Positions 6,062 through 25,358 of a DNA stretch of 64,000 nucleotides are shown one piece after another; the stretch's first letter is position 1, and the number at the start of each line of letters is the position of its first letter. This DNA is from Pseudomonadota bacterium. GTDB taxonomy: Bacteria; Pseudomonadota; Gammaproteobacteria; Burkholderiales; Burkholderiaceae_C. The stretch is from assembly GCA_040758375.1 (NCBI GenBank), contig JBFLWE010000020.1:1202-65201 (forward strand). The letters run 5' to 3'. The notes under the pieces are model-generated. The model was given only the letters and a program-made list of their open reading frames with translations, did no database searches and was not told the DNA's origin. Both the position numbers and the translations under genes were made by a program.

Positions 6062-6100
6062 CCCTTGCACCGCTGGGATGAACTCCGCTTCCGACACGAC

Positions 6101-9243: not shown

Positions 9244-9254
9244 AGGCTCACCCC

Positions 9255-10283
9255 ATGCTCGGATTCCTGCTGCGCCGCGTGGCGCTGGTGGTCCCCACCT
9301 TCCTCGGCATCACGCTGCTGGCGTTCTCGCTGATCCACCTGATCCCCGGCGACCCGGTGCAGGTGATGGCCGGCGAGCGCCGGCTCGACCCTGAATTCCA
9401 CAAGCAGGTGCTGCACCAGCTGGGCCTGGACCTGCCCCTGTGGCAGCAGTACCTCAACTACCTGGGCAAGGCGGTGCGGCTCGACCTCGGCGAGTCGTTC
9501 GTCACCCACGAGCCGGTGTGGAGCGAGTTCACCAAGCTGTTCCCCGCCACGCTGGAGCTGTCGCTGTGCGCCATCGTGTTCGCCACGGTGCTCGGGCTGC
9601 TGGCCGGCGTGCTGGCGGCCATCAAGCGCGGTTCCTGGCTGGACCATGGCGTGATGGGCCTGTCGCTCACCGGCTTCTCGATGCCGATCTTCTGGTGGGG
9701 CCTGCTGCTGATCATGTTCTTCTCGGTGGGCCTGCGCGACATCGCGCCCGAATGGGCGCTGCCGGTGTCCGGGCGCATGGCGCTGGAGTTCGACATCGCC
9801 CCGCGCACCGGCTTCATGCTGGTGGACGCCTGGCTCTCGGGCGAGGAAGGCGCGCTGAAGTCGGCGCTGTCGCACCTGGTGCTGCCGTCCATCGTGCTGG
9901 GCACCATACCGCTGGCGGTGATCGCGCGCATGACGCGCTCGAGCATGCTGGAGGTGCTGCGCGAGGACTACGTGCGCACCGCCAAGGCCAAGGGCCTGTC
10001 GCCGGCGCGCATCGTGTTCGTGCATGCGCTGCGCAACGCGCTGGTGCCGGTGATCACCGTGATCGGCCTGCAGGTGGGCACGCTGCTGGCGGGCGCGGTG
10101 CTCACCGAGACCATCTTCTCCTGGCCGGGCATCGGCAAGTGGCTGATCGACGCGATCGCGCGGCGCGACTATCCGGTCGTGCAGGGCGGCATCCTGATCG
10201 TGGCCACGCTGGTGATCCTGGTGAACCTGCTGGTGGACCTGATGTACGGCCTGGTCAACCCCCGTATTCGACACGCAAAGTAA
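9255..10283 (+). CDS. dppB: dipeptide ABC transporter permease
   Basis: ATG at 9255. The 342-aa product is near-collinear with E. coli DppB as recalled (MLGFLLRRVALVVPTFLGITLLAF...IPGDP...VNPRIRH). Confidence 0.9.
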   Translation: MLGFLLRRVALVVPTFLGITLLAFSLIHLIPGDPVQVMAGERRLDPEFHKQVLHQLGLDLPLWQQYLNYLGKAVRLDLGESFVTHEPVWSEFTKLFPATLELSLCAIVFATVLGLLAGVLAAIKRGSWLDHGVMGLSLTGFSMPIFWWGLLLIMFFSVGLRDIAPEWALPVSGRMALEFDIAPRTGFMLVDAWLSGEEGALKSALSHLVLPSIVLGTIPLAVIARMTRSSMLEVLREDYVRTAKAKGLSPARIVFVHALRNALVPVITVIGLQVGTLLAGAVLTETIFSWPGIGKWLIDAIARRDYPVVQGGILIVATLVILVNLLVDLMYGLVNPRIRHAK

Positions 10284-10293
10284 GGGACCGCGC

Positions 10294-11202
10294 ATGAGTG
10301 CTGTGCTCGCCACCGAGGAAGCCGCCCACGCCGGCGCGCCGCCCTCGTCGTTCAAGGACTTCTGGCGCCACTTCGCGGCCAACAAGGGCGCGCTCGCCGG
10401 GCTGATCTACTTCTCGCTGATCGTGCTGGCGGCGCTGCTGGCGCCGCTGATCGCGCCGCACAGCCCGATCGAGCAGTACCGCGACGCGCTGCTGGCGCCA
10501 CCCGCATGGCATGCCGACGGCAGCAGCCGCTTCCTGCTGGGCACCGACGACATCGGCCGCGACATCCTGTCGCGCCTGCTGCACGGCGCGCGGCTGTCGC
10601 TGATGATCGGCCTGGTGTCGGTGACGCTGGCCATCATCCCCGGCATCGCGCTCGGCCTGGCCGCGGCCTTCTTCCCGCGCGCCGGCATCGCGATCCTGCG
10701 GCTGATGGACATCATGCTCGCGCTGCCCAGCCTGCTGCTGGCGATCGCGGTGGTGGCGGTGCTGGGCCCCGGGCTCACCAACACCATGTTCGCGATCGCG
10801 CTGGTGGCCATTCCCAGCTACGTGCGGCTGGTGCGCGCCTCAGCCATGTCGGAGCTGTCGAAGGACTACGTGATCGCCTCGCGCCTGGCCGGCGCGCGCA
10901 CGCCGCGCCTGATGTTCGACACCGTGCTGCCCAACTGCATGGCGCCGGTGATCGTGACCGCCACGCTGGGCTTCTCCGACGCCATCCTCACCGCGGCGGC
11001 GCTGGGCTTCCTGGGCCTGGGCGCGCAGCCGCCCACGCCCGAGTGGGGCACCATGCTCGCCTCGGCGCGCGACTACATCGAGCGCGCCAACTGGGTGGTC
11101 ACCTTCCCCGGCCTGGCCATCCTGACCACGGTGCTGGCGATCAACCTGATGGGCGACGGCCTGCGCGATGCGCTGGATCCGCGAATGAAGAAACTTTCAT
11201 GA
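10294..11202 (+). CDS. dppC: dipeptide ABC transporter permease
   Basis: 302 aa. BPD-type inner-membrane component with six hydrophobic segments and the motif ASRLAGARTPRLMFDTVLPN. Sits directly after dppB. Confidence 0.88.
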   Translation: MSAVLATEEAAHAGAPPSSFKDFWRHFAANKGALAGLIYFSLIVLAALLAPLIAPHSPIEQYRDALLAPPAWHADGSSRFLLGTDDIGRDILSRLLHGARLSLMIGLVSVTLAIIPGIALGLAAAFFPRAGIAILRLMDIMLALPSLLLAIAVVAVLGPGLTNTMFAIALVAIPSYVRLVRASAMSELSKDYVIASRLAGARTPRLMFDTVLPNCMAPVIVTATLGFSDAILTAAALGFLGLGAQPPTPEWGTMLASARDYIERANWVVTFPGLAILTTVLAINLMGDGLRDALDPRMKKLS

Positions 11203-11275
11203 ACCCCCACGCTCACATTCGTTCGCTGCCCCCCGAGGGGGCTGGCCTCCTTGAGGCGGCTCGGCGGAGGCCGTC

Positions 11276-12271
11276 ATGAGCCACCTCCTCGAAATCCGCA
11301 ACCTCACCGTCGAGTTCGGCCCCGAAGGCCGGGCCTTCGCGGCGGTGAAGGGCGTTGACATCACCCTCGACCGCGGCGAGCTGCTCGGCGTGGTGGGCGA
11401 ATCGGGCTCCGGCAAGAGCGTGAGCATGCTCGCGCTGATGGGCCTGATCGAGGCCCCCGGCCGCGTGAGCGCCGACGTGCTGCGCTTCGACGGGCATGAC
11501 CTGCTGAAGCTGCCGCCGAAAGAGCGCCGCAAGATCGTGGGCCGCGACATGGCCATGATCTTCCAGGACCCGATGACCAGCCTGAACCCCAGCTACACGG
11601 TGGGCACGCAGATCATCGAGACGCTCAAGGTGCACCAGCCCGGCACCAAGGCCCAGATGCACGAGCGCGCGCTCGAGCTGCTCAGGCGGGTGGAGATCCC
11701 CGACCCCGACTCGCGGCTGCGCGCCTATCCGCACCAGCTGTCCGGCGGCATGAGCCAGCGCGTGATGATCGCGATGGCCCTGGCCTGCAACCCCAAGCTG
11801 CTGATCGCCGACGAGCCCACCACCGCGCTGGACGTCACCATCCAGGCCCAGGTGCTGGACCTGCTGGTCACGCTGCAGCGCCAGCAGAACATGGCGCTGA
11901 TCCTGATCACGCACGACCTGGCGCTGCTGGCCGAGCACGCCCGGCGCATCGCGGTCATGTACGCCGGCGAGGTGGTGGAAACGCAAACGGTGCCCACGCT
12001 GTTCGAGCGCCCGCACCACCCGTACACCGCGGCGCTGATGGCCTCGATCCCCGAGTCGAGCCGCGGCGCGCGGCGCCTGCCCACGCTGGCCGGCGTGGTG
12101 CCCGGCATGCACGACCGTCCGCAGGGCTGCCTGCTCTCGCCGCGCTGCCCCAACGTGCGGCCCGAGACCTGCACCCAGGTCCACCCCGACCTGCTGCCCA
12201 TGCCCGACGGCGGCCATGCGCGCTGCCTGTTCCCGCTGAACGTCGCGCCGCACGAAGAGGTGGCCCCATGA
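11276..12271 (+). CDS. dppD: dipeptide ABC transporter ATP-binding protein
   Basis: Walker A GESGSGKS, signature LSGGMSQR, Walker [13 protein letters not shown], and an oligopeptide-type C-terminal extension. Confidence 0.9.
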
Positions 12272-13272
12272 ATGCCGTGACCACCCCCTTGCTCGAAGCG
12301 CGCGACCTCTCGCGCCACTACCACGTCTCGCGCGGATTCATGAAGCCGCACGCCACGGTGAAAGCGCTCAACGGCGTGAGCTTCAGCGTGCACCCCGGCG
12401 AGACGCTGGCGGTGGTGGGCGAATCCGGCTGCGGCAAGAGCACGCTGGCGCGCGCGCTCACGCTGATCGAAAAACCCACCGGCGGCGCGCTCACCATCGA
12501 CGGCATGGACGCCACCGCCGCCTCGCCCGAGCAGGCCAAGGCCTTGCGCAAGCGTGTGCAGATGGTGTTCCAGAACCCCTATGCCTCGCTCAACCCGCGC
12601 AAGCGCGTGGCGCAGATGCTGGAGGAGCCGCTGCTGCTGAACACGCCCATGAGCGCGCCCGAGCGCCGCGAGCGTGTGCAGCAGATGCTGGCCCAGGTGG
12701 GCCTGCGGCCCGAGCATGCGCAGCGCTATCCGCACATGTTCTCCGGCGGCCAGCGCCAGCGCATCGCGATCGCGCGCGCGATGATGCTGCAACCGAAGCT
12801 GCTGGTGGCCGACGAGCCCACCTCGGCGCTGGACGTGTCGATCCAGGCGCAGATCCTCAACCTGTTCATGGACCTGCAGGAGCGCACCGGCACCGCCTAC
12901 GTGTTCATCACGCACAACCTGAGCGTGGTGGAACACATCGCCGACCGCGTGATGGTGATGTACCTGGGACGCGTGGTGGAGCATGCGCCCAAGGCGCGCC
13001 TGTTCGCGCAGCCGATGCACCCCTACACCAAGGCGCTGCTGTCGGCCACGCCCAGCATCGACCCCAGGCGCCGGCTGCAGAAGATCAAGATCGTGGGCGA
13101 GCTGCCTTCGCCGCTGAACCCGCCCAGCGGCTGCACCTTCCACAAGCGCTGCCCGTATGCCACCGAGCGCTGCAGCGCCGAGGTGCCCGCGCTGCGGCCG
13201 GTGGCCGGCGCCGAGGTGGCCTGCCACTATGCGGAGGAGATCATGGCGGGAACCCAGGCGGCCACGCAATGA
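12268..13272 (+). CDS. dppF: dipeptide ABC transporter ATP-binding protein
   Basis: ATGA overlap with dppD. Walker [10 protein letters not shown], signature FSGGQRQR, Walker [13 protein letters not shown]. Confidence 0.9.
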
Positions 13273-13384
13273 CGGCGGCTCATCCCTAGAAATCGACATT
13301 TCGTCAGCCGGCGGTTGCCTTTCGCCGCGCGGGCCTCCTACAGTGCGCCACCCACAAGGCGCACAACACCCAGGAGGCCAGCGC

Positions 13385-14287
13385 ATGCTGTCGATCACCC
13401 GTCTCACCCACACCTACCCCAACGGCACGCGGGCGCTCGACGACGTGTCGCTGGACATCCCGCGCGGCATGTTCGGCCTGCTCGGCCCCAACGGCGCGGG
13501 CAAGTCGTCGCTGATGCGCTGCCTGGCCACGCTGCAGATCCCCACCGCGGGCGAGATCCGGTTCGACGGCCTGGACGTGCTGGCCGAGCCCGCCAGGCTC
13601 AGGGCCCAGCTGGGCTACCTGCCGCAGGACTTTGGCGTGTACCCGCGCGTGTCGGCCTGCGACATGCTGGACCACCTGGCCGTGCTCAAGGGCATCGGCT
13701 CGCGCGGCGAGCGCAAGGCCACGGTGGAAGCGCTGCTGCAGCAGGTGAACCTGTGGGAGGTGCGCAAGAAGCCGATCGCCGGCTTTTCCGGCGGCATGCG
13801 CCAGCGCTTCGGCATCGCGCAGGCGCTGATCGGCAACCCCAGGCTGATCATCGTGGACGAACCCACCGCCGGGCTCGACCCGGAGGAGCGCAACCGCTTC
13901 AACAACCTGCTGGCCGAGATCGGCGAAAACGTGGTGGTGATCCTGTCCACCCACATCGTCGACGACGTGACCGACCTGTGCTCGCGCATGGCCATCCTGG
14001 TGCACGGCCGCATCGTCGCCAGCGGCGCGCCGCAGACCATGATCGACGAGCTGCAGGGCAAGGTGTGGCAGCGCGCGATCCACAAGGAGCAGCTGGCCGC
14101 CTACCGTGAGCGCATGGCCGTCATCGCGACGCGTCTGCGCGGCGGCCGGCCGGTGATCCACGTGCTGGCCGACCATGCGCCCGAGCCCGGCTTCGAGCCG
14201 GTGCAGGCCAGCCTGGAAGACGTGTACTTCGCCACCCTGCACGGCCAGCGCGCCCATGGCAAGAGCCGCGTGCGGCTGGTGGCCTGA
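13385..14287 (+). CDS. ABC transporter ATP-binding protein (ABC-2 / DrrA-like subfamily)
   Basis: ATG at 13385 within ORF 13157..14287. Walker [10 protein letters not shown], signature FSGGMRQR, Walker [13 protein letters not shown]. Confidence 0.88.
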
Positions 14288-14308
14288 AGCCGCACAAGGA
14301 GCCTCACC

Positions 14309-17300
14309 ATGCTGCGACACGTCGCCGCCTTCGAATGGCGCTACCAGATCAAGAGCCCGGTGTTCTGGGTCGGCTGCCTGATGTTCTTCCTGCTGGCCTT
14401 CGGCTCGGTCACGGTGGACCAGATCCAGATCGGCTCGAAGGGCAACGTCCACGTCAACTCCCCGTTTGCCATCGTGCAGACGCTGGCGATCATGAGCCTG
14501 TTCGCGGTGTTCGTGGTCGTCGCGCTGGTGGCCAACGTGGTGATCCGCGACGACGAGACCGGCTTCGCGCCCATCTTGCGCTCCACCTCCGTGGGCAAGG
14601 TCAGCTACCTGGTGGGCCGCTTCGCCGGCGCGCTGGCCGCGGCACTGCTGGTGCTGGCCTCGGTGCCGCTGGCCATCCTGGTGGGCTCGTGGATGCCCTG
14701 GCTCGACCCCGAGAAGCTGGGCGCCTTCCGCCTCGGCCACTACCTCTACGCGCTGTTCGCCTTCGGCCTGCCCACGCTGCTGATCGTCTCGGCCACGTTC
14801 TTCGCGCTGGCCACGGCCACCCGCTCGATGATGTGGACCTACGTCGGCGCGGTGGCGCTGCTGATGCTGTACTTCGTGATGCGCGGCATGCTGCGCGAGC
14901 CGCAGTACGACGGCATCGCGGCGCTGGTCGATCCCTTCGGCCTGTCGGCGCTGTCCACCACCACCAAGTACTGGACCGCCGCCGAGCGCAACACCCTGCT
15001 GCCGCCGCTGGCCGGCCCGCTGCTGGCGAACCGGCTGATCTGGGCCGGCGCGGGGCTGGCCATGTTCGCCTTGGCCTACCGCCTGTTCCGATTCGAGCAG
15101 CCGGCGTCGCGCAAGGCCAGGCCGGCAGCCGCTGCCGACGACACGCCGCCGCCCGCGCCCGCCACCGCCGCGGGCAGCGCGCTGGCCGCCCCACGCGCCG
15201 ACGCCGCCACGCGCCGCGCCCAGCTGTGGCGCCTGGCGCGCTTCGACATGGCCTTCGTGTTCCGCAGCCCGGCGTTCTTCGTGCTGCTGGGCATCGGGGT
15301 GCTCAACTCGACCGGCTCGCTGTGGATGGCCGGGGAGCTGTACGGCAGCGGCTCCTATCCGGTCACCCGGCTGATGGTGCAAGCGCTGCAAGGCGCGTTC
15401 ACGCTGATGCCCATCATCATCGCGATCTTCTACGCCGGCGAGCTGGTGTGGCGCGACCGCGAGCGGCGCATGCACGAGATCGTGGACGCCACCGCCGCGC
15501 CCGACTGGTCGCACCTGGCGCCCAAGATCCTGGCGATCGCGCTGGTGCTCACCGCCAGCGCCCTCGTCGGCGCGGCCACCGGCATCGCCGTGCAGGCGCT
15601 CAAGGGCTACACCCGCTTCGACCTGGCCGCCTACGCGCTGTGGTTCGTGCTGCCCACCACGGTGGCCGCGCTGCAGCTGGCGGTGCTGTCGGTGTTCGTG
15701 CAGGTGCTGGTACCGCAGAAGTTCATCGGTTGGGGCGTGATGCTGCTGTACATCGTGAGCAGCATCGCGCTGGCCACCGCCGGCTTCGAGCACAACCTCT
15801 ACAACTACGGCAACACCCCGCCGGTGCCGCTGTCGGACATGAACCGCATGGGCCGCTTCTGGGTGGGCGCCTCGTGGTTCCTGGCCTACTGGAGCGCGTT
15901 TGCGCTCGTGCTCGCGGTGCTGGCCCATGCGCTGTGGCGGCGCGGCGCCAACGTGGCACTGAAGCCGCGGCTGAAGCAGTTGCGCCACCGGCTGCGCGGC
16001 GGCACGCTGGTGCTGCTGTGCACCGGCGTTGCGGCGTGGCTCGGGCTCGGCGCCTGGATCTTCTACAACACCAACGTCCTCAACACCTACCTGCCGGCCC
16101 CTGAGCGCGAAGCCCTGCTGGCACAGCTTGAAAAGGAGCTGCTGCCCTTCGAAAGCCTGCCGCAGCCCAAGATCACCGCGGTCACGCTCGACGTGCAGCT
16201 CTACCCGCGCGAGGCGCGCGCCGTCACCAGCGGCCGCTACGAGCTGGAGAACCGCAGCGGACAGCCGATCGACCGGCTGCACGTGAGCTGGTTCAGCGAA
16301 TGGACCTCCCTCGACTCGCTGCAGCTGCCCGGCGCCACGCTGCACAAGGACTACCCGCAGTACCACTACCGCATCTACCGCCTGCAGCCCGCGCTGCAGC
16401 CGGGCGAGAAGCGCACGCTGCAGTTCGCCACCACCGTGCAGCAGCGCGGCTTCGGCAACGGCCCGCCGTTGCAGCGCGTGGTGGACAACGGCAGCTTCCT
16501 CGACAACACCGAGTTCGCGCCCGGCATCGGCATGTCGCGCCAGCCGCTGCTGACCGACCGCGCCAAGCGCCGCAAGCATGGCCTGCCGCCCGACCTGCGC
16601 CCGCCCAAGCTGGAAGACGACAGCGCGCGCGCCTTCAACGAGTTCCGCCGCGACAGCGACTGGGTCAGCGCCGACATCAGCGTGACCACCGACGCCGACC
16701 AGACGCCCATCGCGCCCGGCTACACCGTGAGCGACACGGTGTCCAACGGCCGCCGCACCGTGCGCTTCAAGCCCGACGCGCCCCTGAGCTACTTCTTCTC
16801 CATCCAGTCGGGCCGCTACGCGGTGCAGCGCGACAAGTGGAACGAGGTGGACCTGGCGGTCTACTACCACCCCGAGCACGCCTACAACGTGGGCCGCATG
16901 ATGGAGGCGATGAAGCTGTCGCTGCAGATGTTCAGCGAGCGCTTCTCGCCCTACCAGTTCCGCCAGGCGCGCATCCTGGAGTTCCCGGCGTATGCCGACT
17001 TCGCGCAATCGTTCGCCAACACCATCCCGTATTCCGAGAACCTGGGCTTCCTGTTCCGCCACACCGACCCCGAGAAGGTGGACATGGTCACCTACGTCAC
17101 CGCGCACGAGATCGCGCACCAGTGGTGGGGCCACCAGCTCGTGCCGAGCGCGCAGCAGGGCGCCAGCATGCTGGTGGAAAGCTTCGCGCAGTATTCGGCG
17201 CTGCTGGTGATGGAAAAGATGTACGGGCGCGAGCAGGTGCGCCGCTTCACCAAGTACGAGCTCGACCGCTACCTGCGCTCGCGCGGCGGCGAGGTGGTGG

Positions 17301-17896
17301 AAGAGCTGCCGCTCGCCCGCGTGGAGAACCAGGGCTACATCCACTACCGCAAGGGCACGCTGGCGATGTACTGGCTGCGCGAGGCGCTGGGCGAAGACAC
17401 GGTGAACCGTGCGATGAAGAAGCTGCTGGCGCAATACGCTTTCAAACCCGCGCCTTATCCCAACACGCGCGACTTCATCGCCTTGCTGCGCGCCGAGGCC
17501 GGCACCCAGCACGACCCGCTCATCACCGACCTGCTGGAGAAGATCACGCTGCTGGACGTGAAGGTGAGCGATGCCACGGCCACCAGGCGTACCGATGGCA
17601 AGTACGAGGTGACGCTGAAGGTCGAGGCGCGCAAGCTCTATGCCGATGGGCAGGGCAAGGAAACGGAAGCCCCGCTCGACGAGCCGTTCGAAGTGGGCGT
17701 GTTCAGCGCAGAGCCGGGCAGCGCCGGGTTCAAGGCCGACGCGGTGCTGCGCTTCGAGCGCCAGCGGGTGAAGACCGGTGCGCAGACCCTCACGCTGGTG
17801 GTCGACCGCGAGCCGCGCTTCGCGGGCGTGGACCCGTACAACAAGCGCATCGACCGCAACGGTGACGACAACCTGAAGCCGGTGACGCTTAAATAA
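14309..17896 (+). CDS. ABC-2 type permease fused to an M1 family (gluzincin) aminopeptidase domain
   Basis: 1195 aa. The N-terminal two-thirds has many hydrophobic helices. The C-terminal part has HEIAHQWWGH (HExxH) and a downstream Glu (LVESFAQY), as in M1 peptidases. Confidence 0.8.
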   Translation: MLRHVAAFEWRYQIKSPVFWVGCLMFFLLAFGSVTVDQIQIGSKGNVHVNSPFAIVQTLAIMSLFAVFVVVALVANVVIRDDETGFAPILRSTSVGKVSYLVGRFAGALAAALLVLASVPLAILVGSWMPWLDPEKLGAFRLGHYLYALFAFGLPTLLIVSATFFALATATRSMMWTYVGAVALLMLYFVMRGMLREPQYDGIAALVDPFGLSALSTTTKYWTAAERNTLLPPLAGPLLANRLIWAGAGLAMFALAYRLFRFEQPASRKARPAAAADDTPPPAPATAAGSALAAPRADAATRRAQLWRLARFDMAFVFRSPAFFVLLGIGVLNSTGSLWMAGELYGSGSYPVTRLMVQALQGAFTLMPIIIAIFYAGELVWRDRERRMHEIVDATAAPDWSHLAPKILAIALVLTASALVGAATGIAVQALKGYTRFDLAAYALWFVLPTTVAALQLAVLSVFVQVLVPQKFIGWGVMLLYIVSSIALATAGFEHNLYNYGNTPPVPLSDMNRMGRFWVGASWFLAYWSAFALVLAVLAHALWRRGANVALKPRLKQLRHRLRGGTLVLLCTGVAAWLGLGAWIFYNTNVLNTYLPAPEREALLAQLEKELLPFESLPQPKITAVTLDVQLYPREARAVTSGRYELENRSGQPIDRLHVSWFSEWTSLDSLQLPGATLHKDYPQYHYRIYRLQPALQPGEKRTLQFATTVQQRGFGNGPPLQRVVDNGSFLDNTEFAPGIGMSRQPLLTDRAKRRKHGLPPDLRPPKLEDDSARAFNEFRRDSDWVSADISVTTDADQTPIAPGYTVSDTVSNGRRTVRFKPDAPLSYFFSIQSGRYAVQRDKWNEVDLAVYYHPEHAYNVGRMMEAMKLSLQMFSERFSPYQFRQARILEFPAYADFAQSFANTIPYSENLGFLFRHTDPEKVDMVTYVTAHEIAHQWWGHQLVPSAQQGASMLVESFAQYSALLVMEKMYGREQVRRFTKYELDRYLRSRGGEVVEELPLARVENQGYIHYRKGTLAMYWLREALGEDTVNRAMKKLLAQYAFKPAPYPNTRDFIALLRAEAGTQHDPLITDLLEKITLLDVKVSDATATRRTDGKYEVTLKVEARKLYADGQGKETEAPLDEPFEVGVFSAEPGSAGFKADAVLRFERQRVKTGAQTLTLVVDREPRFAGVDPYNKRIDRNGDDNLKPVTLK

Positions 17897-17897
17897 T

Positions 17898-17915
17898 GCG
17901 GGGCGGGCTCCCCGC
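17898..17915 (+). terminator. GC hairpin just after the permease/M1 stop codon
   Basis: GCGGGG-cgggct-CCCCGC, a 6-bp stem. There is no clear T-tract, so termination activity is uncertain. Confidence 0.3.
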
Positions 17916-17922
17916 CTGCGCA

Positions 17923-17936
17923 TACAGAAATCTGTA
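17923..17936. promoter_or_regulatory. palindrome TACAG-N4-CTGTA upstream of vapB (candidate antitoxin operator)
   Basis: Perfect 5-bp inverted repeat 14 nt upstream of the vapB ATG, in a locally AT-richer stretch. Type II antitoxins usually autoregulate through such palindromes. Confidence 0.25.
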
Positions 17937-17949
17937 CACTTCAAGCATC

Positions 17950-18192
17950 ATGAAGACAACGCTTGATCTGAGCGATGCTCTGCTCTCCGAAGCCAAGGCG
18001 CTCGCCGCCCGCCAGCACACGACGCTGACACGCGTGATCGAAGAGGGGCTGCGGCTGCGCCTACAAGCCCAGAAAGCCGCATCCAAGGGCCGCCGCCGCA
18101 CACTGCCAGTCTTCAAGGGCCGCGGCGGGCTCGTGCCCGGAGTTGACCCGCTCAGCAACAAATCAATGTTGCAGGCAGCCGGCGACGAATGA
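17950..18192 (+). CDS. vapB: type II antitoxin (VapB-like)
   Basis: 80 aa from the ATG at 17950 (MKTTLDLSDALLSEAKALAARQHTTLTRVIEEGLR). ATGA overlap with the downstream PIN gene. Confidence 0.7.
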   Translation: MKTTLDLSDALLSEAKALAARQHTTLTRVIEEGLRLRLQAQKAASKGRRRTLPVFKGRGGLVPGVDPLSNKSMLQAAGDE

Positions 18193-18623
18193 CGCCAGAT
18201 GTCAATGTGCTGGTCGCCGCGTCGCGTGACGACCATCCGCACCACGCGGTGGCACGCGAGTGGCTCGAAACGGCGGTGGATGAGGCCTCCGCCGGTGGCG
18301 GGTTGATCTTGTTGCCGATGGTCGTGGCGAGCTTTCTGCGGCTCGCCACGAACACGAAGGTCTTCGTCTCTCCGACACCGACGGAAGACGCGGTCGCGTT
18401 CATCGACGCACTGCTGGCGATGCCCGGCGTGCGCATGCCCGAGGTCGGCGGCGAGTGGCCGCGACTGCGCGCGCTGTGTTTGAGCAAGAAGCTTCGCGCG
18501 AACAGCCTGCCGGACGCCTGGATTGCCGCAGCGACCCAGCAGCTTGGCGAGCATCTGGTCACCTTTGACGCTGACTTCCGCAAGCTCCTCAAGAGAGCCG
18601 AGTTCACGCTGCTCGCCGTATAG
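18189..18623 (+). CDS. vapC: PIN-domain toxin (VapC family ribonuclease)
   Basis: 144 aa. N-terminal acidic residue in MTPDVNVLV and a C-terminal LVTFDADF motif typical of PIN domains. Translationally coupled to vapB. Confidence 0.75.
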   Translation: MTPDVNVLVAASRDDHPHHAVAREWLETAVDEASAGGGLILLPMVVASFLRLATNTKVFVSPTPTEDAVAFIDALLAMPGVRMPEVGGEWPRLRALCLSKKLRANSLPDAWIAAATQQLGEHLVTFDADFRKLLKRAEFTLLAV

Positions 18624-18718
18624 GCAGCCTGAAGCGCGTGATGCTGAAGTAGGGCAAAGCGCCAGCCCTAATAGTTGGGATAACTCACTCAAGGGTTCCG
18701 CCACTAGCCTTCCAGCCC

Positions 18719-19962
18719 GTGGCCTCCCTCTTCCGCCGCGAGGCAATCGACCACCAGCGCGATCGCTTTCACGGGGCGATCGTGCTGGCGAGCACATGGT
18801 CGTCCACGGCGCTGACGCTGTTCCTCTGCGCAGCCGTGGCCTCGGTGATTCTGTTCGCAGGCCTCTTCGGCTTCGCGCGCAAAGAGGCGGTCAGCGGCGT
18901 GCTGGCCCCCGACCGGGGCTTGCTGCGGCTTTCGGCCCCGCAAGCCGGCGTGGTGGCCGACATTCACGTGAGCGACGGCCAGGCGGTACATGCGGGCGAT
19001 CCGCTGTTCACCATCTCCAGCGCGCAAACCAGCGCCACCGGCGCCACCCAGAGCACGATCAACGAAACGCTGGCCGAACGCATGACGCAGCTGCAGGCAG
19101 ACCTGCAGCGCCAGAGCATCTCGCCGCCAACTGGCGCGCCGCGCTGAACGCCCAGTCCGCCAGCCTGCGCGCGGCCTTGCAGCAGCAGGATGCCGATCTG
19201 CAGGTGCAGCAGGAGCGCCTGCAGATGCTGCGCGACATCGCCCAACGGTTCGCTGACCTGCTCAAGACCGGCACGGTAACCGAGGTCGCGGCCAAGGAAA
19301 AGTGGGCTGCGGTGATCGAGCAGCAATCGCGCATTGCCACGCAGCAACACGCCCGGCTGCAGCTGCAGCAACAGGCGCTCGACATCCAGGCGAGCTTGGC
19401 CGACCTGCCACTGCAGACGGCCCGTGAAACCTCCCGTCTGAGCCGTGAACTCGCAGAATTGCAGCAGCAACGCGCAGAAAACGAATCCCGCCGACGGCTG
19501 GTGGTCCGCGCCGAGCAAAGCGGAACGGTCGTCACCCTCATGGCCCAGTCTGGACAAGCCGTGGCCAGCGGCCAGCCCTTGGCAGAACTGCTGCCCTCCC
19601 GCAGCCGGCTGGAGGCCGAACTGCTCGCACCCACCCGCGCCATCGGCCTCGTGCGCCCAGGCACCGAGGTGTTGCTGCGCTACGACGCCTTCCCTTATGA
19701 GCGCTTCGGCCAGTTCAAAGGTCGGGTCCGCGACATCTCCCCCACCGCCGTGCCCTCCGGCGCCCTGCTCGAAACCACCCGCTCACCAACGCCGCTGTAC
19801 CGCATTCGCGTGCAGCTCGAATCCCAGGACGTCATCGCCCAGGGCACACGCCATCGCCTGCGGCCCGGCATGCAAGTCAGCGCCAGCCTGGTGCTGGAGC
19901 GGCGCTCCCTTGTCGAGTGGGTACTGGAGCCGCTGCTGGGCTTGACGGGAGGCCCGGGATGA
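18719..19962 (+). pseudogene. HlyD/CvaA-family bacteriocin-secretion adaptor, frameshifted
   Basis: The N-terminal 142 codons (LFRREAIDHQRDRFHG, one TM, GVVADIHVSDGQAVHAGDPLF) stop at 19145-19147. The rest (coiled coil, SGTVVTLMAQSGQAVASGQPLAELLP, C-terminus) continues in the frame of ORF 18523..19962. The frames switch near 19108-19125, consistent with a 1-nt deletion. Confidence 0.75.
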
Positions 19963-21030
19963 GCCTGTTCCAGGGCCTGCAGCTGGGCCTGGGCCAGCGG
20001 TTGCCGGTGTTGTTGCAGACCGAAGCCACCGAATGCGGCCTCGCCTCGGTGGCGATGATCGCCATCTACCACGGCTACCGCACCGACCTGCCCACGCTGC
20101 GGTTGCGCTTTGCGATCTCGCGCAAGGGCGCCACCTTCGAAAGCCTGATCCGCATTGCCCGCGCACTCAAGCTCGAAAGCCGTCCGCTGAAGCTGGACGT
20201 CGAGAGCCTGCACCACCTGCAGCTTCCGTGCGTGCTGCACTGGGTTCGGGCTCGAACGGGTGCTCATCGTCTGGCTGGCGGCCCACGCCGTGCTGGACAA
20301 GAGCTTCACCGCCGGCATGCTGTTCGCGTTCGTGGCGTACCGGGAGCAGTTTTCCACCCGCATTGCGGGCCTGATCGACAAGGCCACCGAGCTGGCCATG
20401 CTGCGGCTGCATGGCGAGCGCGTGGCCGACATCGTGATGCACGAGCGCGAGGCCGAGACGCCGCATGAACACGATGAGGTGGATCTGCAGCGCGTGCCGC
20501 CGTCGATCGAGCTGCGCGACGTGTCGTTCCGCTACCCGCCCACCGAGCCTTTTGTCTTCGAAAACGTCAGCCTGAAAATCGCCGCCGGCGAATGCGTGGC
20601 GATCACCGACGCTTCGGGTGGCGGCAAGACCACCTTGGTCAAGGTGATGCTGGGCCTGCTGAAGCCCTCACAGGGCGAGATCCTGGTCGGCGGCACCCCG
20701 GTGCAGCGCCTCGGGCTGACCACCTACCGCCAGATGATCGGCACGGTGATGCAAAGTGACCGGCTGTTCAGCGGCTCGCTGGCCGACAACACCTGCTTCT
20801 TCGACCCGATGCCCGACATGGAGCGCATTGAAGCCTGCGCCCGGCTGGCCTCGATCGACAAAGAGATCCTGGACATGCTCAACGAGCGCAACGTGAATGA
20901 TGCGGTAAAGGCCATGCAGCTCACCCGCGTGCTCGTGGCGCACCGGCCCGAAACGATCGCCATGGCCGACCGGGTGTTGGTGATGGAGCGGGGGCGCCTG
21001 GTGCCGCAGGCGGCGGGTGCCATGTCTTGA
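19959..21030 (+). pseudogene. C39-peptidase-domain ABC exporter (CvaB/ComA-like) remnant with two internal deletions
   Basis: The ATG at 19959 overlaps the adaptor stop. The C39 domain is intact through QTEATECGLASVAMI...LPCVLHW. Near 20241 the reading frame jumps to the last TM helix (GFGLERVLIVWLAAHAV). The NBD has ITDASGGGKTT (first Walker A Gly replaced by Asp), a Q-loop and an H-loop (VLVAHRPETI), but no LSGGQ signature and no Walker B (junction near 20871-20885). The total is about 357 codons, where I recall about 700 for the family. Confidence 0.75.
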
Positions 21031-21044
21031 GCACGAACCGAATG

Positions 21045-21067
21045 AGGGGCGCTGCCAATCCGCCCCT
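21045..21067 (+). terminator. hairpin after the ABC remnant
   Basis: AGGGGCG-ctgccaatc-CGCCCCT (7-bp stem) followed by ttgtctgt. Confidence 0.3.
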
Positions 21068-21107
21068 TGTCTGTGACACCTGATTGGCAGTTGACAGGAG
21101 GAATGCT

Positions 21108-21305
21108 GTGAATTCAGAAGACAAGCAAGTCCCGCCCTCGGCGCCCGCGCAGCCGGAGCGGCTGAGCGAGGAGCAGTGGCGTCAGGTGGCCGGTGGGCCG
21201 ATGCCGAGCCCAGGAACAGCCCGCGGTGCCCGCACTGCTGAGCGCCTCAGCGAAGAGCAACTGCGCCAAGTGGCCGGCGGGCCAGTGGTATCCCCAATAC
21301 TGTAG
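21108..21305 (+). CDS. double-glycine-leader peptide precursor with two tandem leader-core units
   Basis: AGGAGG (21096-21101) lies 6 nt before the in-frame GTG at 21108. Product: VNSEDKQVPPSAPAQPERLSEEQWRQVAGG-PMPSPGTARGARTA-ERLSEEQLRQVAGG-PVVSPIL. Both LSEEQxRQVAGG units fit the LSxxELxxIxGG leader consensus. The two 45-nt copies (21156-21200, 21240-21284) differ at 10 nt in 9 of 15 codons. Eight of those codons change only at a synonymous third position, and the ninth is the W/L codon (tgg/ctg). Confidence 0.6.
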   Translation: MNSEDKQVPPSAPAQPERLSEEQWRQVAGGPMPSPGTARGARTAERLSEEQLRQVAGGPVVSPIL

Positions 21306-21321
21306 TTCCGCCACCTGAGCC

Positions 21322-21346
21322 GTCGGGGGAGCACAGTTCCCCCGAC
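21322..21346. terminator. perfect 9-bp hairpin between the convergent peptide gene and TPR regulator gene
   Basis: GTCGGGGGA-gcacagt-TCCCCCGAC, 17 nt after the peptide stop and 27 nt before the regulator stop. No T-tract on either side. Confidence 0.4.
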
Positions 21347-21372
21347 TCCAACCGATCGCCCCAAGAGGGCGG

Positions 21373-23688
21373 CTATTCAGTGGGCAATAGGTAACGCGTT
21401 GCCGGGCCCTTGCCCACCTGCACCAGCAGGCCCCGCTCGGCCAGCAGCCCAAGGTGCTTGGACGCAGTGGCCAGGCCCACCGAGCACAACTCGGCATAGA
21501 TGCTCTTGCTGATCGGCTCGCCGCGCACCAGACGGTCGAGCAAGGCGGCACGGCGTTCGTCCGGCAGCAGGTCGGATGTCGCTTGCCGCCAGTGCGCCGT
21601 CACGCGCTGCTCGCGCGTGAGTTCGCGGTTGAAGACCGCCCGCAGTCCGTCGAACTCGTCCGCGAAGGCATCGCCTAGTTGGTGCTTGTGAATGAGCGCA
21701 AGTGCCGCCTCGCGCTCCTTGGTCGAGATCGTCAGGTAGGACCGCGCAATCGCGATATGCGCCTTCACGTGCACCTGCGGCTCCAAGGGCAACGCCAACA
21801 CCGCGCGTTGCCGCTGCACCTCGGCCATCTCGTGGAAGTGCACCGCAAACTCCTGTGGCAGCAGGCGATCGTAGGAGTCGTTATCGCGCGGTCCAAGGAT
21901 CTCTCGCTTAAGTCCGCGAGTTGCCTCGATCGCCCCCGCGTCCGCGTCCTGCGGCCAGAGGGCAAGAGCGGCTGCAGCATGGGCATCGCCCCGCTGCTCG
22001 TCCTCGGGCCGCTCCAGCGCCTGGAAGCGCTTGTAGTAGGCCTCTGCAAGGTTGTAATGCGCGCGTCCCATCAGTAGCCGCAGCTTGGCCGCGGCACTGC
22101 GTTCGAGTGCGGAACGGTAGTGCTCGATCGCCTGGTCGTATCGGCCTTGCCAGAAGTAGGTGGCACCCAGGTTCATGTGGGTAGCCGCTAGGGTTTCGGG
22201 CTCGATCGCGACCTGGCCCTCCAGCGCCAGCACGCGCTGCGAGTATTCAATCGCGCGGGCAAAGTCCTTTGCGTCCCCGTACAGCAGACTTAGGTTGCTG
22301 TAGGTCTTGAGCACCGACTGCTGGTCGCCCATACGCTCGTAGAGATTGAGCGCGCGGTGCTTGTGCTCCAGCGCCGCGCGCAAGTCCCCCGCGCGCCGCC
22401 AGTACTCGCCCCAGGCCTGCTCCAGCAACGCCTGAACCTCTGAAGGCAGCGCGCGCATCGCACGCAAGTCTTCCGCCTGATCGAGTACCGGCTTTGCGCG
22501 CGGGTCATTGCGGAGCACGTAGATCCAGGCCAGCTTCACCAGCGTGTTCACGTATTCCGCCAGCAGCGGCGCATCCGCCTCGGCAGGGTTGTCCTGCAGA
22601 CCCGCCCGCCGCAGAAACTCGGCGCTGTCTTGGTAGCAGGAGAACGCGCGGTCCGGGTCGCGCGGCTCATGGAACTTGCCCAGAGCGCCGTACACGATGC
22701 CCAGGCGCAACGGATCATCGCCAGCAAGTCGTAGCGTCCGTTCATACGCCTGCTGTTCCCGGTCGTCGTCGCCGCGCACATGCCACAGCGCTGCCACCGC
22801 CAGCGCAAGCCGAAACTGCTGCATCTGCACCATCGGCTGGCCCTGCAACGCTTCCAGCAGGGTGTCCGTGGCAACGTCGTTCGCCAGTTCGATGCGTCGT
22901 CGTTCAAGCGTAGCCAGGATCTGGTCGATGTCTCCCGCGGCCAGCAGGTGCCAAACTGCTGCGGCTGGTTCGCGCGCCAAGAGGGCGCGCGTGGCCTGCA
23001 ATCGGTGCCACTCGGCGCGCTGCTCTGGCTGCTCCAGGCCAAGACGCTCGTACACCGACTGCTGCACGAGGCGCCACAGCCCGAGCTGGCCACGCCCGTC
23101 CGACGGCGGCTGCAGCAGCACCTCAGCCATCAGCCGTTTGCCCTTGTCGAGGTAACGGTAGAAGGTGCTAGGCCCTACTGACCACAACCCGCACAGGTGA
23201 TCGGACGCCGATTCGTCGGCCCGCGCCCTGTAGCGGTCGCGGAAATCGGGCACCGCAGCAAAGCCATACTGGCACATCACGGCCAGCATCGGACGCCAGC
23301 TGGTGCGCTCGATCCAGCACTCGCGCGGAATGTCCTGCAGGCTGGCCTGCCCATCCGGTCTCAGCCGGGTCACGGCCCACCGAAGCAGCAGTTCCCAAGG
23401 CGCGGCCACGCCGGTCCGATCGAGCGCGTCACCTGCAGCCAGCCTAATGGGCCGCAAGAGTTGCTGCTCGAACCTGCGCGTCAGGCGCGGCCGACGGCGC
23501 AGCAATTCGGCCAGCGTGCCCGCCTTGTATGCGTTGAGTGCCGCGCCAAGCACCGCTTCGACGACCGCCGGCGCAAGCGCGTGTCCACACGCTAGCTTGG
23601 TTTCACCCTGCGACTTAGGGGGTGTGGTGACGTCGCTCTTCAACCATCGTCTCCCGATCGTCTGCGGCGTGGTCCACAGGGGACGCAA
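21373..23688 (-). CDS. large TPR-repeat regulator with C-terminal winged-HTH
   Basis: 771-aa ORF. The central region has repeated TPR-like units (e.g. GDAKDFARAIEYSQRVLAL, WQGRYDQAIEHYRSALE, AHYNLAEAYYKRFQAL). C-terminus: SIYAELCSVGLATASKHLGLLAERGLLVQVGKGPATRYLL (ArsR/MarR-like wHTH). There is an N-terminal HTH-like stretch GPSTFYRYLDKGKRL. The start is uncertain: TTG at 23688, or TTG at 23643 preceded by GGAGA. Confidence 0.65.
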   Translation of the reverse strand: MRPLWTTPQTIGRRWLKSDVTTPPKSQGETKLACGHALAPAVVEAVLGAALNAYKAGTLAELLRRRPRLTRRFEQQLLRPIRLAAGDALDRTGVAAPWELLLRWAVTRLRPDGQASLQDIPRECWIERTSWRPMLAVMCQYGFAAVPDFRDRYRARADESASDHLCGLWSVGPSTFYRYLDKGKRLMAEVLLQPPSDGRGQLGLWRLVQQSVYERLGLEQPEQRAEWHRLQATRALLAREPAAAVWHLLAAGDIDQILATLERRRIELANDVATDTLLEALQGQPMVQMQQFRLALAVAALWHVRGDDDREQQAYERTLRLAGDDPLRLGIVYGALGKFHEPRDPDRAFSCYQDSAEFLRRAGLQDNPAEADAPLLAEYVNTLVKLAWIYVLRNDPRAKPVLDQAEDLRAMRALPSEVQALLEQAWGEYWRRAGDLRAALEHKHRALNLYERMGDQQSVLKTYSNLSLLYGDAKDFARAIEYSQRVLALEGQVAIEPETLAATHMNLGATYFWQGRYDQAIEHYRSALERSAAAKLRLLMGRAHYNLAEAYYKRFQALERPEDEQRGDAHAAAALALWPQDADAGAIEATRGLKREILGPRDNDSYDRLLPQEFAVHFHEMAEVQRQRAVLALPLEPQVHVKAHIAIARSYLTISTKEREAALALIHKHQLGDAFADEFDGLRAVFNRELTREQRVTAHWRQATSDLLPDERRAALLDRLVRGEPISKSIYAELCSVGLATASKHLGLLAERGLLVQVGKGPATRYLLPTE

Positions 23689-23804
23689 ATGGCGCCTATG
23701 AATGCGACACCGAAAAGCTTAGTGTATGAGGCGTCGTCGGCGCACTCCCCGTCGAGGCACGCCGCCGTAACACTCATTTGCATCGTCCTACTAAGGAGAC
23801 CTCC

Positions 23805-25358
23805 GTGCCGTTCCCCACCATCCTTCCCAGTGATACGCGTACCGCGCCGACAGACGCCGTGACACTGGCGGTGTACGCACCCTTCGGCACCGACGAGGTG
23901 CTCAGCTCCTATCCTGACGGCAGCTCGCGCGAGCTTGCGCAGCATCCGCTGTTCAAGAGCCTGCTGCAGGTCTGCGAGTGTGGCGTCCACGTGAGTGCGT
24001 TGATCGACCTGGCCGGTGACGACACCTACCTGGTTGACCTTCCCGCCGGCCAACCCGCGGCGGTGAAGGTCATCTCGCGCTGGAAGCAGGACATGTCAGC
24101 CCCAGCCACGCTGGCCGGCTTCCTGCGCCACGCGCAGGCGACTTGGCCCTCGTCCGCGCTCGTGCTGGCGCTCGAAGGCCACGGTGCTGGCTTCCTCCCT
24201 GATATCGACCGCCGCCAGCTGAGCACGCAAAACGTCACCGCGGGCGGCACGATCGAATGGCGTATGTCCGGAGACCATGCCTCCCCCGTGCTGCCGATGG
24301 GCTCGCCGCTCCTGCCCATGGGCTCGCCGTTGTTGCCAATGGGCTCACCGCTGCTGCCAGCGAACCACATGCCGATATCCACTGCCGGCCTGGGCATTGC
24401 CTTGAAGGACGCCATCGCCCACGGAGCGCCGAAGATCGCGGCACTTCACTTCAACAACTGCTTCAACATGTCGGTCGAGGTGCTGCACACGGTGGCCCCG
24501 TATGCCGAGTACGCCACCGGCTACATGAACTACAACTTCTTCACCGCGGGAGCAACCTATCCCGCGGTGTTCGCCCGCCTGCAGCGAGCGGGCAGCGCGA
24601 GTGCCGAACAACTGGCCTGCTGGTTCGCCGACGAGAACCGCGCCGCGCTGGCACAGAAGAAGCACCACCCCACCGTCGGGGGGGTGATCCGCCTGTCCCG
24701 CATGCACGAGATCGCCGAACGCATCGACGACCTGGCTGACGCCTTGCTGTCCGCACTGCGCACGGCCTCTGCGGGCGCGCGGCCTGCCGTCGTCAGCAAG
24801 GTCCGCCACGCCATCCTGAAGGCACAGCAGTACGACACCGACGCACCGATGGAGCTGGAATCCCCGGATCAGCTTACCGACGTCTACAGCCTGGCCGCCG
24901 CATTGACGCAGTTCGACTTCGGCCCGCACAAGGTGCATTCGGCTGCACTGGCGCTGCAGAAGGCACTGCAAGGCGTCAAGGCCTATGGCGAGAACGACCA
25001 CCCCTGGGTCGCCTTCGACCAGCGCTGGAACTTCAGCGCGCCCACATTGGCAATGAACATCTTCCTGCCCGATCCTCTGCTGAGCGGGCTGTGGGACTGG
25101 CGCTCGCCCTATTACCTGAATGTGAACCCCGACCCGACGCTACCCCAGGTGCAACCCCGCATCATTGAATTCCTGAAGGTTACTGACTGGGTGGACTTCA
25201 TCATCGAGTACCACAAGGAAGCCCGCTTCATCGGGCTTCTGCCAGCCGCCATACCCGCGTTCCCGGTGTTCAACGCCGGCTTCGAACCACCCCGCAAGTC
25301 AGACGACCCCTGCCACGACGGAGGTTCCAAGGAGGGAGGCAAGGGCACCGCCCGCTGA
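23805..25358 (+). CDS. clostripain-like cysteine peptidase (family C11, clan CD)
   Basis: AAGGAG (23793-23798) lies 6 nt before the in-frame GTG at 23805. Putative catalytic dyad: His in LVLALEGHGAGF and Cys in IAALHFNNCFNM. This matches the C11 His-Gly ... Ala/Asn-Cys pattern as I recall it, with no HMM run. No signal peptide. Confidence 0.55.
   Translation: MPFPTILPSDTRTAPTDAVTLAVYAPFGTDEVLSSYPDGSSRELAQHPLFKSLLQVCECGVHVSALIDLAGDDTYLVDLPAGQPAAVKVISRWKQDMSAPATLAGFLRHAQATWPSSALVLALEGHGAGFLPDIDRRQLSTQNVTAGGTIEWRMSGDHASPVLPMGSPLLPMGSPLLPMGSPLLPANHMPISTAGLGIALKDAIAHGAPKIAALHFNNCFNMSVEVLHTVAPYAEYATGYMNYNFFTAGATYPAVFARLQRAGSASAEQLACWFADENRAALAQKKHHPTVGGVIRLSRMHEIAERIDDLADALLSALRTASAGARPAVVSKVRHAILKAQQYDTDAPMELESPDQLTDVYSLAAALTQFDFGPHKVHSAALALQKALQGVKAYGENDHPWVAFDQRWNFSAPTLAMNIFLPDPLLSGLWDWRSPYYLNVNPDPTLPQVQPRIIEFLKVTDWVDFIIEYHKEARFIGLLPAAIPAFPVFNAGFEPPRKSDDPCHDGGSKEGGKGTAR
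24294..24356 (+). repeat. 3 x 21-bp in-frame tandem repeat encoding PMGSPLL x3 inside the C11 protease
   Basis: ccgatgggctcgccgctcctg / cccatgggctcgccgttgttg / ccaatgggctcaccgctgctg. Every difference between copies is synonymous. The repeat lies between the putative catalytic His and Cys. Confidence 0.9.

Follow-up and report, generated by a model that had tools for sequence, protein, structure and literature searches.

A coding open reading frame with two double-glycine leader units beside a pseudogenised peptide exporter in a Burkholderiales genome

In the 64,000-nucleotide stretch of DNA analysed here (the window; positions 1,202 to 65,201 of contig JBFLWE010000020.1, assembly GCA_040758375.1, a metagenome-assembled genome (MAG) of the Burkholderiales) a 65-codon open reading frame (ORF) encodes two double-glycine (GG) leader units, each followed by a short tail, in a single frame. 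GG-leader precursors are small, and their amphipathic leader is bound by the C39 domain of a transporter known as a peptidase-containing ABC transporter (PCAT). This transporter cuts after the GG and, assisted by an adaptor of the HlyD type and a channel in the outer membrane, exports the C-terminal piece. We consider it probable (roughly 0.6) that the ORF is a real GG-leader gene belonging to a group of short-core peptides of the Burkholderiales, that it is now the orphaned relic of a decaying export cassette, and that it acquired its two leaders by fusion or duplication. This reading rests on the selection that has acted on both leaders, on the state of the exporter genes next to the ORF, and on the comparison with related loci, in which each gene carries one leader.

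The reading frame and its two leader units

The clearest evidence that the ORF is a gene comes from the comparison of the two 45-nt copies that it contains (21156-21200 and 21240-21284). They differ by 10 nt (22%), spread over nine of the 15 codons, and eight of the codon differences are synonymous third-position changes, the remaining one being nonsynonymous (W/L). When the copies were compared in all six frames, only the frame of the ORF kept the peptide, with one amino acid difference against 3–8 in the others, some of which also contained stops. A simulation in which 10 random substitutions were placed in unit 1 gave at most one amino acid change in only 1 of 200,000 trials (P about 5e-6), and the Nei-Gojobori comparison gave a proportion of synonymous differences (pS) of 0.77, i.e., saturated, against a nonsynonymous proportion (pN) of 0.044. 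The ORF is coding, and its sequence bears the mark of purifying selection on the peptide, both leaders included. With eight synonymous changes to one nonsynonymous, in this frame specifically, the repeat is therefore real, old and maintained at the protein level. The saturated synonymous divergence shows that the paralogy of the units is old, and it dates neither the age of the fused ORF nor its function.

The product of the ORF is VNSEDKQVPPSAPAQPERLSEEQWRQVAGGPMPSPGTARGARTAERLSEEQLRQVAGGPVVSPIL, with the stop codon at 21303-21305, and its layout can be written as VNSEDKQVPPSAPAQP-ERLSEEQWRQVAGG-PMPSPGTARGARTA-ERLSEEQLRQVAGG-PVVSPIL. The leader units ERLSEEQWRQVAGG and ERLSEEQLRQVAGG are spaced by 28 residues, and their GG pairs fall at residues 29-30 and 57-58. 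There is no in-frame start codon proper to unit 2, which is therefore translatable only within the whole ORF. Both tails begin with Pro and contain neither an acidic residue nor N-D-P; they lack Cys, Tyr and Trp, and the only modifiable residues of the Ser/Thr type are S34, T37, T43 and S62. The G+C content at third codon positions (GC3) of the ORF is 0.71, compared to about 0.9 in core genes.

Each unit carries L-12, a W (unit 1) or L (unit 2) at -7, V-4 and GG at -2/-1, where substrates of this class may also have Gly-Ala or Gly-Ser. In a cryo-electron microscopy study of PCAT1 with its substrate, the “hydrophobic knot” is made up of positions -7 and -12, and specificity on the C39 domain is assigned to position -4 (PMC6959990), and the RaxX leader of Xanthomonas likewise has L-12, W-7 and V-4 (bioRxiv 10.1101/442517). 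Among the curated profiles, NCBIfam NF038153 matched the product at 23.4 bits (cutoff 22) in two stretches that cover both units. TIGR01847 (13.1, cutoff 15.7) and PF10439 (13.3, cutoff 27.1) remained below threshold, TIGR03793, TIGR03798 and TIGR04495 were far under their cutoffs, the GG-proximal ends of the NHLP, Nif11, CTB, XyeA, EntF and bacteriocin_sig leader models were matched weakly, and Pfam gave one weak Bacteriocin_IIc match; all these curated matches cover only the generic GG-proximal 12–18 residues. We have also built a leader hidden Markov model (HMM) from 56 distinct leaders of the related loci described below, with the window excluded. Among the 995 segments into which the six-frame translation of the window divides, the ORF comes first (E 2.5e-6; the next has E 1.5), and the model detects both units, at 12.6 and 8.4 bits. 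Taken together, the residues and the profiles indicate that the ORF is a genuine member of the GG-leader peptide class.

Several of these points had been anticipated in an earlier note on the stretch, made from the sequence alone. Direct reading and translation confirmed the AGGAGG-N6-GTG start and the 65 codons that it described; the positions -12, -7 and -4 and the GG-leader profiles agree with its two GG units 28 residues apart; and its argument that nine of 15 codons differing, eight of them synonymously plus the W/L change, indicates coding is supported by the simulation and the six-frame test. The leader-core-leader-core layout that the note called unusual is indeed so, as no other two-leader GG precursor appeared in our sequence searches. 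The homologue and profile searches that it had proposed gave a mixed outcome, i.e., no homologue of the whole peptide, but a leader HMM from relatives that matches both units.

Those searches found no whole-peptide homologue by protein, genome-contig, metagenome-contig, exact-product or plasmid tblastn comparison, and the only matches of phmmer among 1.84 billion protein representatives were three repeat proteins, all spurious. In metagenome contigs, a degenerate DNA pattern for EEQxRQVAGG had 32 matches, which were discarded because all of them are due to chance and lie inside long or antisense ORFs. No second two-leader ORF was found in the 86 related loci, the 1.84 billion protein representatives or the genome, metagenome and plasmid scans, nor any orthologue outside this MAG population. 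The class to which the ORF belongs (GG-leader peptide, PCAT and HlyD) is well known, and the two-leader ORF is without counterpart in the searches made.

The exporter genes and their surroundings

The ORF had been described in the earlier note as lying directly 3' of a HlyD/C39-ABC pair. The adjacency is correct, but the pair is not intact, the HlyD gene being frameshifted and the C39-ABC gene a deletion remnant. Residues 1-132 of HlyD are encoded at 18719-19114 and residues 143-411 at 19144-19929 in a different frame, and tblastn with the Janthinobacterium HlyD matched the two frames at 49–55% identity. Of the PCAT there remain two fragments that are out of frame with each other. The C39 fragment, which tblastn aligns with PCAT residues 4-90 at 69% identity (frame 3, 19983-20243), has the catalytic Cys motif QTEATECG and breaks off at HW, before the catalytic His. 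The junction reads ...CTGCACTGG-G-TTCGGGCTC, with one extra base between the fragments and no repeat, and the loss at this point amounts to about 305 residues, i.e., the remainder of C39, catalytic His/Asp included, and the greater part of the membrane domain (transmembrane (TM) helices TM1-5). The C-terminal remnant, aligned by tblastn over 20245-21021 at 57% identity with 48 gap columns (a 47-residue deletion and one further gap), has a second deletion, in frame, of residues 604-650 that removes the ABC signature and Walker B, and its Walker A is mutated, reading DASGGGKT. HlyD and PCAT beside the ORF are young pseudogenes, and the cognate exporter is dead in this genome; no other PCAT was found within the window. 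The retained PCAT and HlyD segments have no stops and a GC3 of 0.81–0.89, so the decay is recent, and therefore present selection cannot be deduced from the fact that the 65-codon ORF is intact.

A second public assembly, GCA_049319905.1 (locus L001), is base-for-base identical to the window over 13384-22326 (8.9 kb) and has identical split genes, the HlyD being annotated there as genes of 142 and 261 aa. The differences between both assemblies are confined to about 13250-13383 (L001 4047-4207), at the junction of two ABC ATPase genes, a stretch that may be a hotspot of assembly error or strain variation.

The remnants and the ORF form, together with a VapBC pair, a segment of about 17.9-21.4 kb located between an M1-peptidase gene and a gene on the minus strand (21373-23688) that codes for a TPR protein of 771 residues with a C-terminal HTH domain (HTH_20-like). 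Divergent from the latter is a gene for a C11 (clostripain-family) peptidase (23778-25358), with a triple PLLPMGS repeat at about 24290-24350. The TPR-HTH/C11 pair is found at 55–65% identity across Rubrivivax, Ideonella, Rhizobacter, Aquincola and Piscinibacter. In Ideonella (L090) only a DUF3455 gene separates TPR-HTH from the 1195-residue M1-peptidase gene and in L087 TPR-HTH adjoins opp genes, with no VapBC, HlyD, PCAT or peptide there in either case, and Rubrivivax gelatinosus has no PCAT nearby. From this gene order, the segment with VapBC, both exporter remnants and the ORF is an insert among conserved core genes. No modifying enzymes are encoded in it. The coordinates of the features are collected in Table 1.

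Table 1. Features of the peptide locus and of the inserted segment, with positions in the window.
Feature	Position	Strand	Remarks
65-codon ORF, GTG start to stop	21108..21305	+	N-terminal extension (residues 1-16), unit 1, tail 1, unit 2, tail 2
Shine-Dalgarno sequence AGGAGG	21096..21101	+	6 nt 5' of GTG 21108; read directly
Double-glycine leader unit 1, ERLSEEQWRQVAGG	21156..21197	+	L-12, W-7, V-4, GG
Tail (“core”) 1, PMPSPGTARGARTA	21198..21239	+	14 residues or fewer
Double-glycine leader unit 2, ERLSEEQLRQVAGG	21240..21281	+	L-12, L-7, V-4, GG; profile matches
Tail (“core”) 2, PVVSPIL (7 residues)	21282..21302	+	[M+H]+ predicted for the free heptapeptide, 724.460
Two G+C-rich hairpins	21322-21346 and 21356-21372	.	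located where the ORF and the TPR-HTH gene converge; U tract absent
Gene for a membrane-fusion protein of the HlyD family, interrupted by a 1-nt frameshift	18719..19962	+	Pfam HlyD_3/Biotin_lipoyl_2 on both pieces
PCAT C39 peptidase N-terminal fragment (residues about 1-90)	19959..20243	+	Pfam Peptidase_C39 positions 2-83/133
PCAT C-terminal remnant: last TM helix and nucleotide-binding domain (residues 396-702)	20245..21030	+	Pfam ABC_tran positions 2-86/137 only
VapB-like antitoxin	17950-18189	+	weak VapB_antitoxin/DUF6364 matches; 80-aa gene in L001
VapC/PIN toxin	18189-18623	+	Pfam PIN E 1e-12; 144-aa gene in L001

The VapBC pair forms the left edge of the inserted segment and is consistent with a mobile or addictive cassette. 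To its left, 14309-17896 lies 3' of an ABC ATPase gene and codes for a protein of 1195 residues that fuses an ABC-2-type permease to an M1 aminopeptidase; the same pair of genes is located beside TPR-HTH in Ideonella (L090). On the other side of the ORF, the region of the two hairpins (21322-21372) has a predicted RNA fold of -32.8 kcal/mol (z -2.95), and a consensus scan calls no intrinsic terminator in it. Promoter and terminator scans gave nothing at the ORF locus, with no promoter-like site upstream of the ORF; its 5' intergenic region shows no significant structure, Tandem Repeats Finder makes no call there, and between 21030 and 21373 there is no candidate immunity ORF.

We have considered the two conserved neighbors as possible partners of the peptide, TPR-HTH as an RRNPP-like receptor and C11 as a maturation protease. 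Both ideas were rejected, the former because no peptide gene accompanies the TPR-HTH gene that is conserved in Rubrivivax, Ideonella and L087, and the latter because the TPR-HTH/C11 pair is conserved where there is no peptide system. Since they occur in such genomes, neither of them is dedicated to the peptide. In one Burkholderiales MAG (L023) the same position is occupied by an intact HlyD-PCAT (5992-13212) that abuts the TPR-HTH/C11 pair, the end of the PCAT gene falling within the 3' end of TPR-HTH. Inspection of 13 kb of this locus, the space between PCAT and TPR-HTH included, gave no GG-peptide ORF. The substrates of this transporter must then be encoded at another place, unless the site is a recurrent insertion spot.

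A family of short-core peptides with one leader per gene

We have examined 86 related loci with about 110 family genes (80 genome loci fetched plus several contigs). The closest intact HlyD proteins (47–52% identity) belong to Oxalobacteraceae and other Burkholderiales, and the PCAT fragments of the window are 57–69% identical to the PCAT of Janthinobacterium; in the relatives this protein is full-length, with 697–713 residues. Many of these intact HlyD/PCAT loci contain from one to 15 separate small genes, each of them with one GG leader and one Pro-initiated core of 8–17 residues. The 56 distinct leaders, from Janthinobacterium, Duganella, Pseudoduganella, Undibacterium and MAG loci, have the consensus ..MRELTPEEIAAVAGG, and the core follows P[EDQ][VIL][EQK]N[DE]P.. 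or PEVDVExGGG. Members of the family were found in Janthinobacterium BJB412, Duganella CT11-25, Pseudoduganella, Undibacterium pigrum and Undibacterium Ji50W and the MAG locus L007. Examples of cores are PESEVGDGSEPD (Janthinobacterium, 6 genes), PQVQNDPQKPP (Duganella), PEVENDPGEP (Pseudoduganella), PDVENDPPPF (L007, 8 genes) and PEVDVESGGG (Undibacterium, 9 and 15 genes). The family peptides have no matches in Pfam or NCBIfam, and a literature search on the short-core family or on natural multi-leader GG precursors found nothing relevant; this short-core GG-Pro family appears to be undescribed.

None of the about 110 family genes has two leaders in one ORF. In two loci, however, neighboring genes lie in frame with a single stop between them (L007 484-996, with a period of 171 nt, and L015 3726-4184, with a period of 156 nt). 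A two-unit ORF is therefore one mutation or deletion away, and need not be an adaptation. The ORF of the window shares with these relatives the HlyD/PCAT clade, the match to the leader HMM, Pro after the GG, the very short cores and the presence of several diverged paralogous units per locus. It differs in that every gene of the relatives has a single leader and a start of its own, while here two units depend on one start; their cores are acidic, whereas the tails of the window are neutral or basic, hydrophobic and without N-D-P; and their transporters are intact, some with a linked Ser/Thr kinase-TPR gene, while the window has pseudogenes and no kinase-TPR.

The genes of the family are located at L002 13438-14978 and 9556-9738, L004 8821-9732, L007 2-1946, L015 3726-4342, L016 2292-5789, and L026 3954-5983 and 9586-9768. 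A Hanks-type Ser/Thr kinase with C-terminal TPR, of about 715 residues, recurs within 6 kb of the peptide arrays and PCAT (L016 10046-12807; L026 9882-12685; L002 15638-17782; L049 2367-4541; L051 2261-4435) and might be a sensor for the exported peptides. In Undibacterium the kinase-TPR gene is accompanied by a conserved protein of about 160 residues, and in L016 and L004 there is a sigma-54 activator nearby. Cores like PDVENDPPPR (L007, L004) superficially resemble the HDPPPR of RaxX and plant PSY peptides, in these loci without the sulfated Tyr and with no linked sulfotransferase gene.

Origin of the two-leader frame and alternative explanations

A further indication about the origin of the ORF is found in the DNA outside its two units. 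The segment 21119-21155, which encodes the N-terminal extension before unit 1, aligns with 21207-21239, i.e., the 3' two-thirds of tail 1, with gaps of 3 nt and 1 nt, and 11 of 2000 shuffles scored as well; the units show no significant DNA similarity 3' of GG-Pro. If this alignment is real, two-thirds of “core 1” would be a partly frame-shifted copy of the leader extension and not a selected core. The short Pro-rich cores proposed in the earlier note are thus found in so far as both tails are short and begin with Pro, but part of the first one resembles frame-shifted extension DNA.

The sequence of events that we favor would start from two anciently diverged paralogous units, each a leader with a short tail, that came to stand in one frame by an in-frame deletion or stop loss fusing neighboring genes, or by an old internal duplication of about 84–88 nt; the two-leader layout would be a by-product of this fusion or duplication. 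The export cassette, probably inserted horizontally, would then have decayed and left the peptide gene orphaned. As a linked modifying enzyme is absent, an unmodified peptide would be expected, and if it is still translated it could be processed only by a non-cognate PCAT encoded elsewhere. If leader 1 docked and the cut fell after G30, the exported product would be a 35-mer made of tail 1, leader 2 and tail 2 (predicted [M+2H]2+ 1814.47); with leader 2 docked and a cut after G58, it would be the heptapeptide PVVSPIL. For shorter species from the first part, the predicted [M+H]+ is 1369.70 for PMPSPGTARGARTA and 2922.50 for tail 1 with leader 2. According to the PCAT1 model, the transporter takes the cargo C-terminal of the docked leader into its cavity, cuts it and exports it without specificity for the cargo (PMC6959990), and the partial replacement of RaxB by PctB provides a precedent for non-cognate processing (bioRxiv 10.1101/442517).

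Some observations weigh against an orphaned relic. The ribosome-binding site is near-ideal and the frame runs uninterrupted through both units. The purifying selection on both leaders, the internal one included, would equally be seen in a two-leader precursor that has functioned for a long time. Foreign GG peptides can be processed by non-cognate PCATs, and a trans-acting exporter outside the 64-kb window is possible. Regarding the origin, the upstream DNA similarity is short and moderately significant, and favors neither fusion nor internal duplication. Finally, the second assembly may come from the same population or data, and confirms the deletions only weakly as an independent source.

These points lead to the opposite explanation, a functional multi-product precursor cut at both GG by a PCAT encoded elsewhere, with two short peptides (or a 35-mer plus the heptapeptide) acting as signals or antagonists, which we judge unlikely. 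Both units have the recognition determinants and are under purifying selection, the Shine-Dalgarno sequence and start are strong and the frame is intact, PCATs have no cargo specificity and tolerate non-cognate leaders (PMC6959990; bioRxiv 10.1101/442517), and the arrays of up to 15 genes in relatives suggest that several products per locus are favored. However, with the cognate PCAT and HlyD being pseudogenes a PCAT in trans would be needed, and no other two-leader ORF exists among the about 110 family genes or was retrieved by the protein and DNA searches. In addition, the PCAT1 model couples cleavage to translocation, so that a clean release of tail 1 alone is unexpected, and the resemblance of part of “core 1” to frame-shifted leader-extension DNA does not suit a selected core. 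The more specific version, a leader-core-leader-core substrate cut twice by a PCAT elsewhere to yield PVVSPIL and PMPSPG... species, is decidedly doubtful. The idea of a multi-core precursor had been put forward in the earlier note, and what stands of it is the presence of two leader units with short tails, while the dead exporter and the single leader per gene in relatives speak against it. If it were true, the ORF would be a bacterial counterpart of the repeat-type pheromone and RiPP (peptide made on the ribosome and modified after translation) precursors of eukaryotes and cyanobacteria, and an internal GG leader would be recognizable, a natural test of the use of non-N-terminal leaders that would be useful for the engineering of secretion tags. 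If processed, it would be, to our knowledge, the first GG-leader precursor that delivers more than one cargo.

That the ORF may be the precursor of a RiPP was also suggested in the earlier note. We regard as very improbable that its Pro-rich tails are modified by dedicated enzymes before leader removal, in the manner of NHLP/Nif11, lanthipeptide or RaxX-type systems, with the C11 peptidase and the TPR protein taking part in maturation or sensing. The weak matches to the RiPP leader families NF038153, TIGR03793, TIGR03798 and TIGR04495 point in this direction, as does the adjacency of C11 and TPR-HTH, which also abut the HlyD-PCAT of L023. Yet the profile matches are limited to generic GG-proximal residues, L023 has no peptide ORF between PCAT and TPR-HTH, and TPR-HTH/C11 are core genes conserved in genomes without PCAT or peptide beside them. 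The tails have no Cys, Tyr or Trp, and their four Ser and Thr residues have no cognate enzyme, none of the modifying type being encoded in the insert. An assembly artefact, in which repeated peptide genes and transporter paralogues were collapsed or joined into chimeras to give the two-unit ORF and the PCAT deletions, has in its favor that the source is a MAG, that the tandem arrays of the relatives are collapsible by short-read assemblers and that L001, differing from the window only near 13.25-13.38 kb, is maybe not independent. We give it very little weight, since units that differ at 22% of their nucleotides are too diverged to collapse, the PCAT junction has no repeat and the region has the same bases throughout in two assemblies. 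As for a chance ORF with an accidental repeat in G+C-rich DNA, long spurious ORFs are abundant in this window of 66–70% G+C, the GC3 is below that of core genes, there is no promoter-like site and the databases hold no whole-peptide homologue. This explanation is effectively refuted by the frame-specific synonymous divergence in the simulation (P about 5e-6) and by the family HMM (E 2.5e-6 on both units), and the position of the ORF beside HlyD/PCAT remnants also matches that of family members in other genomes.

The orphaned GG-leader gene that we propose can also be set against known systems. Class II bacteriocins and microcins (CvaC/CvaAB-TolC), the pheromones ComC/ComAB and BlpC and the pneumococcal rtg GG peptides (PMC7018657) have the same leader determinants as the ORF, and share with it the location of the gene beside HlyD and C39-ABC genes and the lack of modifying enzymes. 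Unlike them, the ORF has two leader units, tails whose 7 and 14 residues fall far short of the length of class II microcins or bacteriocins, no immunity gene, no two-component sensor, and a transporter and adaptor that are pseudogenes. Its short tails are nearer to cargo of the pheromone type than of the bacteriocin type. A class II microcin was ruled out, as the mature toxins of that class have tens of residues and there is no candidate immunity ORF here. RaxX with RaxA-RaxB (bioRxiv 10.1101/442517; PMC6637879) resembles the ORF in being a Gram-negative system with a short Pro-rich peptide and a GG leader with L-12, W-7 and V-4; processing and export are the work of a PCAT and an adaptor of the HlyD type, and another, non-cognate PCAT can take over in part. 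However, RaxX has one leader, a sulfated Tyr next to the cleavage site and a linked sulfotransferase gene (raxST), none of which is present in the window, and a sulfated RiPP of this type was discarded, the peptide having no Tyr and the insert no sulfotransferase gene.

Repetition in a precursor is found in other groups. Cyanobactin PatE-type precursors carry multi-core cassettes. Other cases are the multivalent graspetides plesiocin, chryseoviridin and thuringinin (PMC13003496) and the Kex2-processed repeat proteins of fungi (PMC7329392). These precursors share with the ORF the repeated cassettes of a recognition sequence and a short core, in which the recognition part is conserved and the cores diverge. 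They differ in having enzymes or proteases encoded nearby, or one N-terminal leader for several cores, and none has repeated GG leaders cut by a PCAT, whereas the ORF has two units and no maturation genes.

Under the reading that we prefer, the locus would be a snapshot of the decay of a peptide-export cassette and of tandem peptide genes fusing into multi-unit ORFs. The better lead is the short-core GG family itself, with its recurrent link to a Ser/Thr kinase-TPR gene, which by its appearance is an unexplored system of peptide signalling or competition in Gram-negative bacteria.

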